A model generated the notes under the pieces. It ran no database searches and had not been told where the DNA came from. It was given only the letters and a program-made list of their open reading frames with translations. From Escherichia phage ZCEC14, in the sequence record OP168898.1: a DNA stretch of 64,000 nt; one strand, 5' to 3'. The translations under genes were made by a program, and so were the position numbers. Position 1 is the first letter of the stretch. Every line of letters begins with the position of its first letter. Below, piece after piece: positions 208 to 41,123 of this stretch.

Positions 208-237
208 GGGAGAGCCTCGGCTCTCCCTTTTTTATTT
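208..237 (+). terminator. rho-independent terminator
   Basis: GGGAGAGCC-TC-GGCTCTCCC stem-loop followed by TTTTTTATTT. Confidence 0.7.
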
Positions 238-297
238 CAAAAAATTTTTCACAAAACGGTTTACAACCAAAGCATACTGTGGTACTATACAACTATC
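228..297 (+). repeat. promoter-leader repeat family A, copy 1 (partner at 16718-16786)
   Basis: about 70 nt near-identical to 16718-16786, differing only by an indel in the A/T tract. Confidence 0.85.
259..288 (+). promoter_or_regulatory. T4-type early promoter
   Basis: GTTTACA at 259-265, 17-nt spacer, TGG-TACTAT -10 at 283-288; upstream A/T tract. Confidence 0.6.
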
Positions 298-15019: not shown

Positions 15020-15669
15020 TTAAACTCCGCATGCCTGCTGGTGGTGAAAGATACATTGATGGTAAATCAGTTTATAAATTATACTTAATGATAAAACAAC
15101 ATATGAATGGAAAGTATGATGTAATTAAGTATAATTGGTGCATGCGGGTGTCTGATGCCGCTTATCAAAAGCGAAGGGATAAGTATTTTTTCCAGAAGTT
15201 ATCAGAAAAATATAAATTAAAGGAACTTGCTTTAATCTTTATAAGCAATTTGGTTGCTAACCAAGATGCTTGGATTGGTGACATCTCTGACGCTGATGCA
15301 CTTGTGTTTTATCGTGAATATATCGGACGCTTAAAGCAAATTAAATTTAAGTTTGAAGAAGATATTCGCAACATTTATTATTTTAGTAAAAAAGTTGAAG
15401 TTTCTTCTTTTAAAGAAATCTTTGAATATAATCCAAAGGTTCAGTCAAGTTATATTTTTAAACTTCTGCAATCGAATATAATTTCGTTTGAGACGTTTAT
15501 CTTGCTTGATTCGTTTTTAAATATAATTGATAAACATGATGAACAGACTGATAATTTAGTCTGGAATAATTATTCTGTAAAGTTAAAGGCTTATAGAAAA
15601 ATTTTAAATATTGATTCACAGAAAGCTAAAAATGTTTTCATTGAAACTGTGAAATCTTGTAAGTATTAA
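15016..15669 (+). CDS. 59: gp59 helicase loader
   Basis: 217-aa ORF matching recalled T4 gp59 (MIKLRMPAGGERYIDGKSVYKLY...). Confidence 0.9.
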   Translation: MIKLRMPAGGERYIDGKSVYKLYLMIKQHMNGKYDVIKYNWCMRVSDAAYQKRRDKYFFQKLSEKYKLKELALIFISNLVANQDAWIGDISDADALVFYREYIGRLKQIKFKFEEDIRNIYYFSKKVEVSSFKEIFEYNPKVQSSYIFKLLQSNIISFETFILLDSFLNIIDKHDEQTDNLVWNNYSVKLKAYRKILNIDSQKAKNVFIETVKSCKY

Positions 15670-15670
15670 T

Positions 15671-15694
15671 TGCTTATTATAAATAGATTATAAT
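15671..15694 (+). promoter_or_regulatory. candidate MotA-dependent middle promoter for gene 32
   Basis: TTGCTTAT MotA-box-like element 11-12 nt upstream of TATAAT (15689-15694); imperfect box. Confidence 0.3.
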
Positions 15695-15699
15695 TATCT

Positions 15700-15767
15700 C
15701 ACTGACCAGCTATGAGGTCATACATCGTCATAGCACCAACTGTTAATTAAATTAAAAGGAAATAAAA
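15700..15767 (+). promoter_or_regulatory. gene 32 translational operator (pseudoknot plus unstructured A/U-rich tract)
   Basis: nested complementarity TGACC/GGTCA and GCTATGA/TCATAGC at 15703-15735, then AU-rich AATTAAATTAAAAGGAAATAAAA before the ATG; matches the known T4 gene 32 autoregulatory leader. Confidence 0.6.
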
Positions 15768-16676
15768 ATGTTTAAACGTAAATCTACTGCTGAACTCGCT
15801 GCGCAAATGGCTAAACTGGCTGGAAATAAAGGTGGTTTTTCTTCTGAAGATAAAGGCGAGTGGAAACTGAAACTCGACAATGCGGGTAACGGTCAAGCAG
15901 TAATTCGTTTTCTTCCGTCTAAAAATGATGAACAAGCACCATTCGCAATTCTTGTAAATCACGGTTTCAAGAAAAATGGTAAATGGTATATTGAAAACTG
16001 TTCATCTACCCACGGCGATTACGATTCTTGTCCAGTATGTCAGTACATCAGTAAAAATGATCTGTACAATACTGACAATAAAGAGTACAGTCTTGTTAAA
16101 CGTAAAACTTCTTACTGGGCTAACATTCTTGTTGTAAAAGACCCAGCTGCTCCAGAAAATGAAGGTAAAGTATTTAAATACCGTTTCGGTAAGAAAATCT
16201 GGGATAAAATCAATGCAATGATTGCAGTTGATGTTGAAATGGGTGAAACTCCGGTTGATGTAACTTGTCCGTGGGAAGGTGCTAACTTTGTACTGAAAGT
16301 TAAACAAGTTTCTGGTTTTAGTAACTACGATGAATCTAAATTCCTGAATCAATCTGCGATTCCAAACATTGACGATGAATCTTTCCAGAAAGAACTGTTC
16401 GAACAAATGGTTGACCTTTCTGAAATGACTTCTAAAGATAAATTCAAATCGTTTGAAGAACTGAGCACTAAGTTCAGTCAAGTTATGGGAACTGCTGTGA
16501 TGGGTGGTGCCGCTGCAACTGCTGCTAAGAAAGCTGATAAAGTTGCTGATGATTTGGATGCATTCAATGTTGATGACTTCAATACAAAAACTGAAGATGA
16601 TTTTATGAGCTCAAGCTCTGGTAGTTCATCTAGTGCTGATGACACGGACTTGGATGACCTTTTGAATGACCTTTAA
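15768..16676 (+). CDS. 32: gp32 single-stranded DNA-binding protein
   Basis: 302-aa ORF matching recalled T4 gp32 ([17 protein letters not shown]...), acidic Ser/Asp-rich C-terminus. Confidence 0.95.
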
Positions 16677-16698
16677 TAGATTATATTACTAATTAATT

Positions 16699-16727
16699 GG
16701 GGACCCTAGAGGTCCCCTTTTTTATTT
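16699..16727 (+). terminator. rho-independent terminator after gene 32
   Basis: GGGGACC-CTAGA-GGTCCCC then TTTTTTATTT. Confidence 0.7.
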
Positions 16728-16786
16728 CAAAATTTTTTCACAAAACGGTTTACAACCAAAGCATACTGTGGTACTATACAACTATC
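16718..16786 (+). repeat. promoter-leader repeat family A, copy 2
   Basis: near-identical to 228-297. Confidence 0.85.
16748..16777 (+). promoter_or_regulatory. T4-type early promoter
   Basis: GTTTACA 16748-16754, 17-nt spacer, TACTAT 16772-16777. Confidence 0.6.
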
Positions 16787-16820
16787 GGCAATACTGCTGA
16801 TAATTAAAGAGGAAAATAAT

Positions 16821-17048
16821 ATGGCTAAAATTGATATTGATGTTGTTGATTTTGAATATATTGAAGAAATTATTCGTAATCGTTATCCTGAACTTAGTAT
16901 CATAAGCGCATTAGATGATCCTAATTGTAATGTTTCAGTTGTTATTGAAGGTCCTTTAGATCGTCTTAAACAGTTTATGGTTAATGAATACTGCGACGGT
17001 ATGGATGCTGAAGATGTAGAATTTTACACAGGATTTATTGAACAGTAA
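16821..17048 (+). CDS. hypothetical early protein, 75 aa (frd.3 position)
   Basis: ATG ORF with AAGAGGAAAA SD; acidic. Confidence 0.55.
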
Positions 17049-17093
17049 TTATTAAGGGGCTATAATAGCCCCTATTAAAATGAGGAAAACGTA

Positions 17094-17459
17094 ATGTATA
17101 CCGGTAAAAAGTATGAACTTGTTCCAAGACTTATTGATACATTTATTAATTATCGCCCACGTTCTAATTCAGCAATAGTTAAAATTATTCAAGAAAATGG
17201 CGGATGGTTTGAAGTTAAAGAAGCTTTCTTTGTTGATGGATTTAGAGTAATAAAACACATTGAATGCGCAAATGGAAAGCATTTTTACTTTAACGTTTGT
17301 GAAGACGAATTTCATTGTTTTCGTGAGTATAAAGAACCGACTTCTGAAGAAGATGAAGTTGAAGACAAAGTTTCTGGCGTAACAAAAATTCACTGCATTG
17401 TAGATGAAAACAATGTAGACGAAATCATTGAACTTTTGCGAAAAACTTTCAAAAAGTAG
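17094..17459 (+). CDS. hypothetical early protein, 121 aa (frd.2 position)
   Basis: ATG ORF with GAGGAAAA SD; preceded by the hairpin GGGGCTAT-TAA-ATAGCCCC. Confidence 0.55.
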   Translation: MYTGKKYELVPRLIDTFINYRPRSNSAIVKIIQENGGWFEVKEAFFVDGFRVIKHIECANGKHFYFNVCEDEFHCFREYKEPTSEEDEVEDKVSGVTKIHCIVDENNVDEIIELLRKTFKK

Positions 17460-25539: not shown

Positions 25540-25542
25540 GTT

Positions 25543-25596
25543 GTTTACAAGTCACTCGTGTTGTGTTATAGTAGTCTTACTGACATAACATGAGGA
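25543..25596 (+). repeat. promoter-leader repeat family B, copy 1 (partner at 41070-41123)
   Basis: 54 nt identical to 41070-41123; contains GTTTACA 25543-25549, extended -10 TGTTATAGT, and GAGGA SD. Confidence 0.85.
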
Positions 25597-32052: not shown

Positions 32053-32057
32053 GTTGA

Positions 32058-32086
32058 GGACTCCTTCGGGAGTCCTTTTTTATTTT
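32058..32086 (+). terminator. rho-independent terminator
   Basis: GGACTCC-TTCG-GGAGTCC then TTTTTTATTTT. Confidence 0.75.
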
Positions 32087-32105
32087 CCAAAGACTGCACA
32101 AAGTT

Positions 32106-32135
32106 GTTTACAGTACGGTTCCTTTGTGATAGTAT
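32106..32135 (+). promoter_or_regulatory. early promoter
   Basis: GTTTACA 32106-32112, 17-nt spacer, TAGTAT 32130-32135. Confidence 0.5.
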
Positions 32136-32162: not shown

Positions 32163-32495
32163 ATGAAAACTATTAATCTGAACGCTACAGTTAAAACTAA
32201 ATGCTTCAATGGTAAATATAATGAAACTATGTGGTTCTTAATGGCAGTTGAAGGTGATATTATTGAAGTAGAAACAACAGAAGGTATGGGAACAGATTTC
32301 ACCTTTACAATTCAAGTTCATAATTTCTTTACTGGTTGGATTTATGAATTGAATACAGTAATCGTTGGAAAAATTGAACAAAATGAATTAGGCGAATGGC
32401 ATTATGTTACAGCTCGCCAACGTGCAGAACGTTTAATTGAGAAGATGAAAAAAGTTGGTAAACTTGACATGCAGCACTGGAAAGTAGTAAAATAA
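32163..32495 (+). CDS. hypothetical protein, 110 aa
   Basis: ATG with AAGGAG SD. Confidence 0.5.
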   Translation: MKTINLNATVKTKCFNGKYNETMWFLMAVEGDIIEVETTEGMGTDFTFTIQVHNFFTGWIYELNTVIVGKIEQNELGEWHYVTARQRAERLIEKMKKVGKLDMQHWKVVK

Positions 32496-36892: not shown

Positions 36893-36915
36893 GAATAAAC
36901 ACTAGAGAGGATATG

Positions 36916-39009
36916 ATGGAACTTATTACAGAATTATTTGACGAAGATACTACTCTTCCGATTACAAACTTAAATCCAAAGAAGAAAATACCGCAAATTT
37001 TTTCAGTTCATGTTGATGATGCAATTGAACAACCAGGCTTTCGTTTATGTACCTATACATCTGGAGGTGATACTAACCGTGATTTAAAGATGGGCGATAA
37101 AATGATGCACATTGTTCCTTTTACACTAACTGCTAAAGGTTCAATTGCTAAATTAAAAGGTCTCGGTCCAAGCCCAATTAATTACATCAATTCAGTTTTT
37201 ACTGTTGCAATGCAAACAATGCGTCAGTATAAAATTGATGCCTGTATGCTTCGTATTCTTAAGTCTAAAACTGCTGGTCAAGCTCGACAAATTCAAGTTA
37301 TTGCTGATAGACTTATCCGTAGTCGTTCAGGTGGCAGATACGTCCTTCTTAAGGAACTCTGGGACTATGATAAAAAGTATGCATATATTCTTATACATCG
37401 CAAAAATGTATCACTAGAAGACATTCCAGGAGTTCCGGAAATTAGTACCGAGCTCTTTACTAAAGTTGAATCGAAGGTCGGCGATGTTTATATCAATAAA
37501 GATACCGGAGCTCAAGTAACTAAAAATGAGGCAATTGCAGCATCTATTGCACAAGAAAATGATAAACGTTCTGACCAAGCTGTTATTGTTAAAGTTAAAA
37601 TTTCCCGTAGAGCAATTGCGCAAAGTCAATCATTAGAATCTTCTAGATTTGAAAGTGAATTATTCCAGAAGTATGAATCTACCGCAGCTAATTTTAATAA
37701 ACCTGCTACCGCTCCTTTAATTCCCGAAGCAGAAGAAATGAAGCTTGGAATTAATTCATTAGCTTCTAAAACTAAGGCAGCAAAAATTATTGCTGAAGGA
37801 ACTGCAAATGAACTTCACTATGACTATAAATTCTTTTCAAAAAGTGAGGTTGATGAAGTTTCTGAAAAAATTAAAGATGTAATTCTTAATGCGATTAAAA
37901 ATGAACCAACTACTTCAATAAAATGTTTAGAGAAATACGCAGCAGCTGTTAATAAATTCTTTGAAGAATATAAAGATAATTGGCTTGATAAACATAATAA
38001 AACCCGTAAAGGACAGCCAGATGAAGTCTGGGAAGAAATAACTAAAAATTCCTGGAACGCAGCAAAAACTAAATTCCTCAAACGAATGATTTATAGTTTT
38101 TCTGGAATTGGTGCAGGTCCAATGATTGATATTACTATTGCCCGTGATGGTTCTAAATATACTCCATCACAAAAGCGCGGCATTAGAGAATATTGTGGAT
38201 CAGGATATACTGACATCAATAATCTTCTTTTAGGCCGCTACAATCCAGAACGATATGATGTAATGAGTGAAAAAGAAATTGAATCTGCGATAAATAATTT
38301 AGATTCAGCTTTTGAAAATGGTGATCGTATACCAGAAGGCATTACAGTTTATCGTGCTCAAAGCATGACTGCTCCTATATACGAAGCACTAGTTAAAAAT
38401 AAAGTGTTCTATTTCAGAAATTTTGTATCTACTTCTTTAACTCCTATCATTTTTGGACGTTTTGGAATTACACATGCTGGTATCGGTCTTTTAGAACCAG
38501 AAGCTCGCAATGAATTAACAGTTGATAAAAATGAAGAAGGAATAACTATTAATCCAAACGAAATAAGAGCGTATAAAGAAAATCCTGAATACGTTAAAGT
38601 TCAAATAGGATGGGCAATTGATGGAGCTCATAAAGTTAATGTTGTATATCCAGGAAGTCTCGGAATAGCAACAGAAGCTGAAGTTATTCTACCGCGCGGA
38701 TTGATGGTCAAAGTTAATAAAATAACTGATGCTTCTAATAATGACGGAACAACATCTAATAATACAAAACTCATTCAAGCTGAAGTTATGACTACGGAAG
38801 AACTCACCGAATCAGTAATTTATGACGGTGACCGTCTAATGGAAACTGGCGAAGTAGTTGCAATGACAGGTGATATTGAAATAGAAGACAGAGTTGACTT
38901 TGCATCATTTGTTTCATCAAATGTTAAACAGAAAGTAGAATCATCTCTTGGAATTATTGCGTCTTGCATAGATATTACAAACATGCCTTACAAGTTCGTT
39001 CAAGGATAA
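36916..39009 (+). CDS. alt: Alt-like ADP-ribosyltransferase, paralog 1 (697 aa)
   Basis: N-terminus MELITELFDE... shared with paralog 2; C-terminal R / STS / ExE-type transferase motifs (YRAQ, FVSTSL, EAEVILPRG). Confidence 0.8.
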   Translation: MELITELFDEDTTLPITNLNPKKKIPQIFSVHVDDAIEQPGFRLCTYTSGGDTNRDLKMGDKMMHIVPFTLTAKGSIAKLKGLGPSPINYINSVFTVAMQTMRQYKIDACMLRILKSKTAGQARQIQVIADRLIRSRSGGRYVLLKELWDYDKKYAYILIHRKNVSLEDIPGVPEISTELFTKVESKVGDVYINKDTGAQVTKNEAIAASIAQENDKRSDQAVIVKVKISRRAIAQSQSLESSRFESELFQKYESTAANFNKPATAPLIPEAEEMKLGINSLASKTKAAKIIAEGTANELHYDYKFFSKSEVDEVSEKIKDVILNAIKNEPTTSIKCLEKYAAAVNKFFEEYKDNWLDKHNKTRKGQPDEVWEEITKNSWNAAKTKFLKRMIYSFSGIGAGPMIDITIARDGSKYTPSQKRGIREYCGSGYTDINNLLLGRYNPERYDVMSEKEIESAINNLDSAFENGDRIPEGITVYRAQSMTAPIYEALVKNKVFYFRNFVSTSLTPIIFGRFGITHAGIGLLEPEARNELTVDKNEEGITINPNEIRAYKENPEYVKVQIGWAIDGAHKVNVVYPGSLGIATEAEVILPRGLMVKVNKITDASNNDGTTSNNTKLIQAEVMTTEELTESVIYDGDRLMETGEVVAMTGDIEIEDRVDFASFVSSNVKQKVESSLGIIASCIDITNMPYKFVQG

Positions 39010-39012
39010 ATC

Positions 39013-41070
39013 ATGGAACTTATTACAGAATTATTTGACGGCGCTTCGGCGCCGGTTGTTAACTTAAATCCTAAGCATAAAATACCTCAAATTTTTGCTA
39101 TTCAAGCCGGCGAAGAAAGCGTGCTTCCTGGATTTAGATTTTGTACATACACCTCTGGTGGTGATACAAATAAAAACGTTAAGCCAGGTGATAAAATGAT
39201 GCATATCGTAATGATAGGTGTCAATGAGAAACTATCATTAGTTAAACTTAAAAACTTGGGTGGAAATCCAATTGGTGTCATTAATGCTGTTTTTGATACT
39301 GCTCTTCAAACAATGAAACAATATAAAATCGACGCATGCCTATTCCGCGTACTAAAAAGTAAAACAAATGGCGCAGCTCGTCAAATGCAAGTTATTGCTG
39401 ACCGTTTAGTACGTACTAAAGGAGCAGGTCGTTATGTTCTTTTAAAGGAAATCTGGGACTATGATAAAAAGTATGCATATATTATGGTTTACCGTAAAAA
39501 TGCCAATTTAGAAGACATTCCAGGTGTACCTCCTATTTCAACTGAGTTATTCACAAAAGTTGAATCGAAGGTCGGTGATGTTTATGTAGACGTTAAAACA
39601 GGTAATGCTGTTCCTAAAGCTGTCGCTGTTGCTGCTTCTATTGCTTTAGAAAATGATAAACGTACTGACCAAGCGGTTATTCAGAAAACTAAAATTAGTC
39701 GTCGATTAGCAGCGCAAGCTCAATATTCTACTGTCGATGCTTCACTTCAGGGTGATAGCTTCGCTGCCAAGAAATATCAAGAGTTTGAATCTAAAGTTCC
39801 GGTATATAAAGCAGAAGGACCAATGAACTCTGGCGTTATTCAGATTGGTTCAAACTTCAGCAAAGGAGCTATCGGTGGTATGAGGAGTGCTTCTCGTTTT
39901 AAATCTAACGATTATGAACTAGAAAACTTCCGAAATCATATTGCATTAGCCCATGCGCGTTTACGTGATCCATCTATCAAGTTGCAGAGCGATATAACAT
40001 ATCAAGGTTCTCAAGAATATTTAAAGAATAAAGAATTCTTTGATTATAAAACTGATAAAATTTTAAGCGATCTTGCTGATATTAATATTTCTAATAGCTT
40101 TGATGTTATTAAGAAAATTATCAATGATTTGGTTAAAGGTTCTAAAGCTACGCCAGATGAAAAGACAGCTATTATTCAATTTGTAATGAATGGCATTTAT
40201 AAATTGATTAATGAATCTGCTGCTCAGGCGTATGAATATGCAAGTACTGAAGTAACTCCAAAAGGATTAACTCAGGCTGAATCTGACGTAATTGAAGATT
40301 ATTGTGCTGATTCATATGTTGAAATGAACTCGTTCCTTTTGGGTAAACCAGATTCTACCCGTGAAGAATATATGGAACGAGCTATTAAACACATCGAGAC
40401 GTTGGATTCTGCCTTTGCCAAAGGATCAGTTCTTCCTCCAGGAACTACGCTTTATCGCGGACAAGAAGTTACATTTAAAACTTTGCGTCATAACATTGAA
40501 AATAAAATGTTCTATTTCAAGAACTTCGTATCCACATCGCTTAAACCAAATATCTTCGGTGAGCATGGTAAAAACTATATGGCTCTAGATGATTCCGGCG
40601 CAGTATTTTCTGGTGAAGGAGAAGGTTCCGTTGATGCAGAAGATTTGATGCATATGGGTAGTCATTCTACATATGCTAATGAAGATGCTGAAACTAGCGT
40701 GGGTATGGTAATTAAAGGAGCTGAACGAATCAAAGTTATCGTTCCAGGTCATTTATCAGGATTTCCATCAGAAGCTGAAGTTATTCTACCACGTGGAATT
40801 TTACTGAAGATTAATAAAGTAAGTACGTACTTTATGAAAGAAACTGCTTATAACAAGTATCTAATCGAAGGTACAATCGTTCCTCCTTCCGAACAATTAG
40901 AAGAATCGGTATATGATGGTGACCATCTGATGGAAACTGGTGAAGTTCGTCCAATGACTGGATTTAACCAATTCCTTGTAGAAGAATCAAAAGAAGAGGA
41001 AAACGAAGTTTCTCAAATCTTGGCTTCTTTGGTTAACATCAACGGAATGTCTAAAAAGTTCAAGATGTAG
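39013..41070 (+). CDS. alt: Alt-like ADP-ribosyltransferase, paralog 2 (685 aa)
   Basis: N-terminus MELITELFDG...; C-terminal motifs YRGQ, FVSTSL, EAEVILPRG; closer to the T4 Alt length (682 aa). Confidence 0.8.
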   Translation: MELITELFDGASAPVVNLNPKHKIPQIFAIQAGEESVLPGFRFCTYTSGGDTNKNVKPGDKMMHIVMIGVNEKLSLVKLKNLGGNPIGVINAVFDTALQTMKQYKIDACLFRVLKSKTNGAARQMQVIADRLVRTKGAGRYVLLKEIWDYDKKYAYIMVYRKNANLEDIPGVPPISTELFTKVESKVGDVYVDVKTGNAVPKAVAVAASIALENDKRTDQAVIQKTKISRRLAAQAQYSTVDASLQGDSFAAKKYQEFESKVPVYKAEGPMNSGVIQIGSNFSKGAIGGMRSASRFKSNDYELENFRNHIALAHARLRDPSIKLQSDITYQGSQEYLKNKEFFDYKTDKILSDLADINISNSFDVIKKIINDLVKGSKATPDEKTAIIQFVMNGIYKLINESAAQAYEYASTEVTPKGLTQAESDVIEDYCADSYVEMNSFLLGKPDSTREEYMERAIKHIETLDSAFAKGSVLPPGTTLYRGQEVTFKTLRHNIENKMFYFKNFVSTSLKPNIFGEHGKNYMALDDSGAVFSGEGEGSVDAEDLMHMGSHSTYANEDAETSVGMVIKGAERIKVIVPGHLSGFPSEAEVILPRGILLKINKVSTYFMKETAYNKYLIEGTIVPPSEQLEESVYDGDHLMETGEVRPMTGFNQFLVEESKEEENEVSQILASLVNINGMSKKFKM

Positions 41071-41123
41071 TTTACAAGTCACTCGTGTTGTGTTATAGTA
41101 GTCTTACTGACATAACATGAGGA
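41070..41123 (+). repeat. promoter-leader repeat family B, copy 2
   Basis: 54 nt identical to 25543-25596; GTTTACA 41070-41076, TATAGT 41094-41099, GAGGA SD. Confidence 0.85.

Follow-up and report, generated by a model that had tools for sequence, protein, structure and literature searches.

The window analysed here is a stretch of 64,000 nucleotides of Escherichia phage ZCEC14 (OP168898.1), and all positions are counted from its first letter. It belongs to a Tequatrovirus (T4-like coliphage): its first 3 kb matched genomes of this group with identity up to 98.2%, and the IMG/VR viral contigs included 100% identical MotA proteins. From the left end the window carries motA.1, motA, arn.4-arn and asiA; t and genes 38-34 follow on the opposite strand, and after them come rnh, dsbA, 33, 59, 32, frd.3 and frd.2. 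The gene order of PST and T4 is the same. Four genes on the + strand border the two sites studied here. The motA.1 ORF (53-202, 49 aa) was found in the ORF list and is annotated at the same place in PST, T4, RB14 and AR1. The genes motA (330-965, 211 aa, ATG at 330) and 32 (15768-16676, ssDNA-binding protein of 302 aa, stop at 16676) were assigned by the ORF list together with the annotation of relatives, and frd.3 (16821-17048, 75 aa, ATG at 16821), a variable gene, was assigned by the ORF list. A promoter-like repeat, called family A below, lies between motA.1 and motA (copy 1) and again between the gene 32 stop and frd.3 (copy 2, the post-32 site), which is the placement given in an earlier sequence-only reading of this DNA.

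Two other features of the window were observed. The segG homing-endonuclease gene between genes 59 and 32 is absent in the window (~15660-15768), RB14, T2, AR1 and FT, and present in T4 and PST. At about 36900-41000, the direct-repeat families D3, D11, D12, D13 and D17 have a constant spacing of 2094-2103 nt, which indicates two tandem paralogous genes of about 2.1 kb.

Structure of the two cassettes

A different hairpin stands before each copy, as described earlier (207/208-227/228 and 16699-16717), and both hairpins run into T6ATTT. Hairpin 1 (207-228, + strand), detected by terminator scan and folding, has a 9-bp GC-rich stem and a CUCG loop; it is located 5 nt after the motA.1 stop and folds with -18.6 kcal/mol (z -5.1). 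Hairpin 2 (16699-16717, + strand), detected in the same way, has a 7-bp stem (GGGGACC/GGTCCCC) and the loop CTAGA, is located 22 nt after the gene 32 stop and folds with -14.3 kcal/mol. The parts of an intrinsic terminator, a GC hairpin followed by the U-run U6AUUU downstream of a stop codon, are thus found at both copies. The hairpin 1 site is annotated as terminator in R5505, and the hairpin 2 site in R5505 and ASO78A. Among relatives, the hairpins at both sites occur as two alleles that are exact reverse complements (GGGGACCCTAGAGGTCCCC vs GGGGACCTCTAGGGTCCCC; GGGAGAGCCTCGGCTCTCCC vs GGGAGAGCCGAGGCTCTCCC), which is a flip-flop loop inversion. At the post-32 hairpin, both loop orientations were found with each of two spacer alleles described below, the motA type and the PST type.

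Copy 1 (224-297, + strand) consists of the hairpin end, the T-tail, A6T5, CACAAAACG, the -35 hexamer, the spacer, the TGn/-10 element and the start region. By sequence, its T-tail and A/T tracts upstream of -35 (228-259) are UP-element-like. They are followed by the -35 hexamer TTTACA (260-265, within GTTTACA at 259-265), the 14-nt spacer core ACCAAAGCATACTG (266-279) and the extended -10, TGG plus TACTAT (280-288, hexamer at 283-288). Copy 2 (16713-16786, + strand) has the -35 hexamer at 16749-16754, the spacer core at 16755-16768 and TGG plus TACTAT at 16769-16777. Because the -10 hexamers lie at 283-288 and 16772-16777, transcription start is predicted by sigma-70 geometry at A295, 7 nt after the -10, and at A16784; the identity of the two copies ends at 297/16786, about +3 from these positions. 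GTTTACA, a 17-nt spacer and TGG-TACTAT had been noticed in both copies, and this is right: both have the hexamers of a T4-type early promoter (TTTACA-17-TACTAT with TG), and both match the consensus GTTTAC(N14)gtggTAttaT quoted in the ASO78A annotation. The UP-like region, T6ATTTC A4-6 T5-6 at about -37 to -68, is also present in both. In ASO78A, the annotation of the site orthologous to copy 2 names a rho-independent terminator and a T4 early promoter.

In T4, the early promoter regions of motA and frd.3 are the orthologues of the two cassettes, and for annotation both sites can be given the label terminator plus early promoter, for motA in one case and for frd.3 in the other. The intrinsic hairpin would end transcription from the upstream gene (motA.1 or gene 32). 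Directly after it, a strong host sigma-70 early promoter (A/T tracts, GTTTACA, 17-bp spacer, TGgTACTAT) would restart transcription at about A295 for motA-arn-asiA and at about A16784 for frd.3-frd.2. We infer this promoter and terminator activity in ZCEC14, as well as the start at A295/A16784, from the sequence and from T4, where motA is treated in the literature as a typical early transcript. The frd.3 RNA of T4 ranks with the most abundant of its NAD-capped RNAs. This kind of cap needs a +1A start, so an active A-start promoter is indirectly indicated for frd.3 by way of T4.

The leaders following the two promoters on the + strand are each unique to their copy. The motA leader (298-329) has the Shine-Dalgarno sequence GGAG (318-321) and the frd.3 leader (16787-16820) has GAGGA (16809-16813). 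Homology between the two leaders was not significant, as 239 of 2000 shuffles scored as well. The copies had been said to be identical well into the transcribed leader; since the leaders match no better than shuffled sequence and the identity ends at about +3, this part of the claim is wrong. The small 5' hairpins of the two leaders are weak (z -0.2 and -2.1). At 318-328 the motA leader (GGAGATTAGAA) agrees at 10 of 11 positions with the RegB endoribonuclease cleavage consensus GG*AGRAYARAA (PMC3014915), and the frd.3 leader has GAGGA but no GGAG.

Extent and specificity of the repeat

Self-comparison of the window gave 92% identity over the full repeat without gaps, and 72 of 74 positions match if one gap is allowed. 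The copies had been described as near-identical, differing only by an indel in the A/T tract. The near-identity stands, and the difference is one indel plus one substitution (A6T5 in copy 1, A4T6 in copy 2). An exact core of 48 nt (250-297 = 16739-16786) has only these two occurrences in the window even at <=3 mismatches, so the ~70-nt cassette is indeed present twice; in shuffled sequence the core was matched in 0 of 100 shuffles. In related genomes the repeat occupies about 2 places each, with a maximum of 4 reached in a few of them.

Nine plausible early promoters of the window were aligned in register over the same 74 nt. Compared with the 92% of the family-A pair, 34 other pairs had a mean identity of 46% and a maximum of 61%, and the pair 25544/41071 had 74%. 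The other early promoters are without the family-specific CACAAAACG and ACAACTATC. Similarity within family A is not confined to the -35/-10 hexamers but includes the spacer and 36 nt upstream of -35, which confirms by self-comparison that the identity is more than promoter function requires. The pair with 74% belongs to a second early-promoter repeat pair, at 25540-25596 and 41067-41123 (57 nt, 98% identity), in which the identity runs from -35 (GTTGTTTACA) through the leader to the Shine-Dalgarno GAGGA and the sequence upstream of -35 is unrelated.

Three composites of hairpin, T-tail and early promoter were found by scanning the 64-kb window: copy 1, copy 2 and a third, diverged cassette at 32057-32135 (+ strand), upstream of a 110-aa ORF (32163-32495). 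The third contains a hairpin, T5ATTTT, CACAAAGTTG and TTTACA-17-TAGTAT. Its internal spacing is that of family A, with which it shares only about 50% identity.

A transposon or MITE (IS/MITE-like) was also considered and rejected; there are two copies in the window, with no terminal inverted repeats and no target duplication. The two ends of the repeat fall at the terminator and at the predicted transcription start.

Spacer alleles and exchange at the two sites

Eleven genomes were compared, including the window and one IMG/VR contig (L003/L006). At the motA site the spacer was ACCAAAGCATACTG in the window and in 9/9 relatives in which the cassette was located; the PinkRuby cassette was not located at this site. 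At the post-32 site there are at least 3 spacer alleles among the compared genomes. The window, T4_ev240, PinkRuby, R5505 and RB14 have the motA-type spacer; PST, T2, AR1 and FT have TCCTTGTCCTTCCA (PST-type), with a one-base variant in one IMG/VR contig; and T4 has AGCATAAAGCTTTA. Both sites exist in T4 and PST. There the two sites agree exactly in the blocks CCC-T6ATTTY-A/T tract-CACAAAACGGTTTACA and TGGTACTATACAACTATC, but the 14-nt post-32 spacer is completely different from the motA-site spacer. Two blocks are common to both sites in every relative examined, one of ~42 nt (T-tail through GTTTACA) and one of 18 nt (TGGTACTATACAACTATC). These flanking blocks are nearly constant among relatives, with <=1 base different at the post-32 copy. 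The upstream C/T variants of copy 1/copy 2 were C/C in four genomes, T/T in two and T/C in three, counted over genomes that are not independent; together with the A/T-run variants they may be a weak hint of concerted evolution between the copies.

In more distant T4-like phages (MotA 52-70% identical) a hairpin, or at least an early promoter, stands before motA, and the two most distant contigs (MotA 52% identical) keep CACAAAACAGTTTACA there. In three ZN18-like contigs (L007, L008, L009), family A has one more promoter copy. Its spacer is of a fourth type, TACCACAAGGACCG, and it lacks a GC hairpin. The copy stands a few kb upstream of motA, before an 87-aa ORF that has no counterpart in the window.

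These alleles bear on whether functional constraint alone could explain the repeat, with two strong early promoters arriving at one optimal sequence by convergence, or being kept there, and no recombination between them. Constraint would agree with the extra, unusually long consensus of T4 early promoters, which extends over UP, -35, TGn and -10 (PMC2988021), and with the conservation of both flanking blocks at the two sites in every relative. However, the 14-nt spacer, which matters mainly by its length, is identical here and yet completely different at the post-32 site in T4 and PST. The other early promoters of the window, with their 46% on average and without the two family-specific motifs, do not fit either, and the independence of the spacer allele from the neighbouring frd.3 allele (below) also speaks against it. 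So we regard constraint alone as very unlikely.

Scans of IMG/VR (family pattern, MotA and Frd.3) yielded just a few Tequatrovirus contigs, not enough to survey the population, and the survey was therefore made in the INPHARED phage collection. About 59 of 501 INPHARED records were >=95% identical to window positions 16690-16830. A 60-nt diagnostic for the motA-type post-32 spacer gave about 37 full-length matches at >=96.7%, taken from the ranked table alone because the BLAST identity bands were confounded by partial matches to the shared blocks. At >=95% identity, roughly 250 records matched the PST type and roughly 100 the T4 type. The post-32 arrangement of the window is therefore a widespread minority allele, present in about 8-12% of roughly 500 relatives. 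An assembly or sequencing artefact as the origin of the duplication has practically no chance, and is refuted by the same arrangement in dozens of phages that were sequenced independently, among them RB14, R5505, PinkRuby, EP01 and Hafnia phage IsaacDaniel.

The post-32 spacer allele is uncoupled from the downstream frd.3 allele. R5505 (motA-type spacer) and FT (PST-type spacer) are 99.3% identical over leader and frd.3, and the frd.3 of the window is only 82-84% identical to those of R5505 and RB14, although all three have the same spacer. A sharp mosaic boundary runs across copy 2: gene 32 is 96-98% identical to relatives and frd.3 is 82-87% identical, with the exception of T4_ev240, whose frd.3 is 97.4-100% identical to the window. 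The segment of frd.3 and frd.2 (16787-17459) gave about 80-90% identity or partial matches to relatives.

The promoter and frd.3 might instead have been imported together from another phage as one PeSL-plus-ORF cassette, by a mini-circle or a double crossover and with no intragenomic conversion from the motA site. PeSL (promoter-early stem-loop) is the published kind of element that combines a T4 early promoter with a terminator, and replacement of PeSL-flanked ORFs is a published mechanism (PMC2839356, PMC4122927). Joint import would suit the unusual frd.3 of the window, for which T4_ev240 is the best match, and five phages with >=97.6% identity to the window over promoter plus frd.3 (T4_ev240, Solly, ECO78, IsaacDaniel, a Hafnia phage, and Pu-Krd-SF5) all have the motA-type spacer or a one-base variant of it. 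However, the motA-type spacer also stands before quite different frd.3 alleles in RB14, R5505 and PinkRuby, giving at least 3 backgrounds. It means that the spacer moves independently of the gene, at least sometimes. We consider joint import doubtful, though it keeps some weight.

Copy 1 is also a place of exchange. In FT and many relatives, a 75-aa ORF with its own early promoter lies between the family-A promoter and motA; the extra length is roughly 340 bp and splits the matches to the first 3 kb of the window into two pieces. In FT and in one contig (L005), the insert has 33-nt direct repeats, TACTATA(C/G)A(A/C)CTATCAAATAAATGAACTGAAAC, at its ends, which overlap the -10 and the leader. The coordinates of the insert are 657-1070 in L032 (phage FT) and 1283-1700 in L005. 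In the insert-bearing relatives, the motA-proximal promoter resembles the motA promoter of the more distant T4-like phages. The sequence-only reading had taken such cassettes as substrates for homologous recombination, and the spacer swap, the insertion of the 75-aa ORF at copy 1 and the mosaic boundary at copy 2 bear this out.

The same reading went further and proposed that recombination between the copies could delete or shuffle the tail-fibre block of 16.5 kb. The pair would then be recombination linkers, at which crossovers delete, duplicate or circularise the motA-gene 32 block and shuffle host range. At 74 nt, these direct repeats exceed the <50 bp of homology required in T4 recombination (Singer et al. 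1982, cited in PMC2839356), and PeSL mini-circles were demonstrated between nearby cassettes (Arbiol et al. 2010, PMC2839356). Two crossover products were built in silico, motA.1-promoter-frd.3 and gene 32-promoter-motA, and their junctions were contiguous in 0/724 and 0/503 matching phage records. Gene order was kept in 9/9 relatives fetched, and the spacing of the copies was roughly 16.4-17.4 kb in 8/8 fetched relatives with both copies located. The interval between the copies contains motA, asiA, t, genes 34-38, rnh, 33, 59 and 32. Several genes of this interval are essential in T4, so that deletion between the copies would be lethal, and a duplication of 16.5 kb would exceed the T4 headful and terminal redundancy. 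Because deletion is lethal and duplication is too long to package, only non-crossover patches can survive between two copies flanking essential genes, and the allele pattern between the copies shows such patches. The proposed deletion or shuffling of the block thus found no support in these genomes, and the linker role is highly improbable.

We give a probability of about 85% to the reading that these are composite terminator plus sigma-70 early promoter cassettes of the PeSL class, whose spacer identity came about by short-patch recombination; activity, start and donor direction are predicted parts of this reading. In this reading, common ancestry together with functional constraint accounts for the shared blocks of ~42 nt and 18 nt. 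The identity of the 14-nt spacers comes only from the presence, at the post-32 site of this lineage, of the motA-site spacer. That the motA-type spacer occurs with several different frd.3 alleles speaks for short-patch recombination or gene conversion within the promoter. As judged from the allele pattern, the most likely cause of the spacer identity would be short-patch homologous recombination (non-crossover gene conversion) by the phage recombination system, primed by the conserved blocks. Conversion probably went from the motA site to the post-32 site, because the motA-site spacer is constant wherever it was located and the post-32 site is polymorphic. It could also be that the motA-type spacer was ancestral at both sites and was later replaced in the PST-type and T4-type lineages. 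The source of these two other post-32 alleles was looked for and no donor turned up; for the PST-type spacer, the window gave one chance-level match with 2 mismatches and IMG/VR gave the post-32 site only.

Over about 10 genomes, the spacer patch, the terminator loop orientation and the downstream allele reassort around two short invariant blocks, which makes a clean worked example. A more far-reaching idea is that the post-32 spacer is an exchangeable patch between invariant blocks subject to active, promoter-targeted gene conversion in T-even phages, for instance with recombination primed at the open complexes or R-loops of very strong early promoters. We hold this to be unlikely. If it were true, dispersed early promoters would be homogenised, and the family-A pair could be portable homology arms around the tail-fibre (host-range) block in co-infection.

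Relation to known elements

Both cassettes are of an already known kind, PeSL, and do not represent a new one. T4 early promoters (Pe) have reportedly been catalogued by Liebig and Rüger in 1989, Wilkens and Rüger in 1996 and Miller et al. in 2003. The copies in the window are like them in having GTTTAC at -35, a 17-bp spacer, gTGgTAnnAT at -10, upstream A/T tracts and a position before early genes, and the T4 genome has orthologous sequences at both sites. Unlike T4, the post-32 copy of the window has the motA-site spacer allele instead of the T4 allele; nothing functional differs.

Repoila et al. (EMBO J, 1994) are said to have described ~70-bp sequences of early promoter and inverted repeat that flank the internal-protein genes of T-even phages, and reportedly proposed that these repeats mediate recombinational shuffling of the flanked ORFs. 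The present cassettes are similar in length (~70 bp) and in combining a T4 early promoter with an inverted repeat. They differ in locus and sequence, and the internal-protein stem-loops are weaker and AT-rich whereas strong GC hairpins occur here.

The PeSL class was defined for RB49 and phi1 by Arbiol et al. 2010 (PMC2839356), who showed that promoter and terminator were active in PeSLs taken as examples. Comeau et al. 2014 (PMC4122927) extends the class to PST and T4, with TTTACW-N17-TAYWAT and a stem-loop just upstream, and both copies fit this PST/T4 consensus as given there. The PeSL anatomy is present in both copies: a stem-loop terminator beside a sigma-70-type early promoter, an AT-rich region upstream of -35, and a Shine-Dalgarno sequence and start codon on the 3' side. 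Like PeSL, the element is repeated in the genome (the three composites of the window), and the neighbouring ORF changes between close relatives, here as the 75-aa ORF indel at copy 1 and the frd.3 allele boundary at copy 2. PeSL cassettes are associated with the insertion, deletion and replacement of ORFs, and such events are likewise seen here, in the 75-aa ORF insert of FT and L005 and in the reassortment of spacer and frd.3 alleles. Unlike PeSL, which flanks a small ORFan in a hyperplastic region, these copies flank a 16.5-kb block of core genes, and what is exchanged between them is a 14-nt spacer patch and not an excised ORF.

The cassettes can also be compared with the "linker" sequences of Botstein and Campbell for modular phage evolution, as discussed in PMC2839356. 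Those linkers are a concept for lambdoid phages, not a sequence family, but the likeness is that of a conserved intergenic regulatory crossover point between divergent modules, here gene 32 and frd.3. According to a published idea, T4-type mosaicism has its crossover points in regulatory cassettes, and the reassortment found at these two sites supports this.
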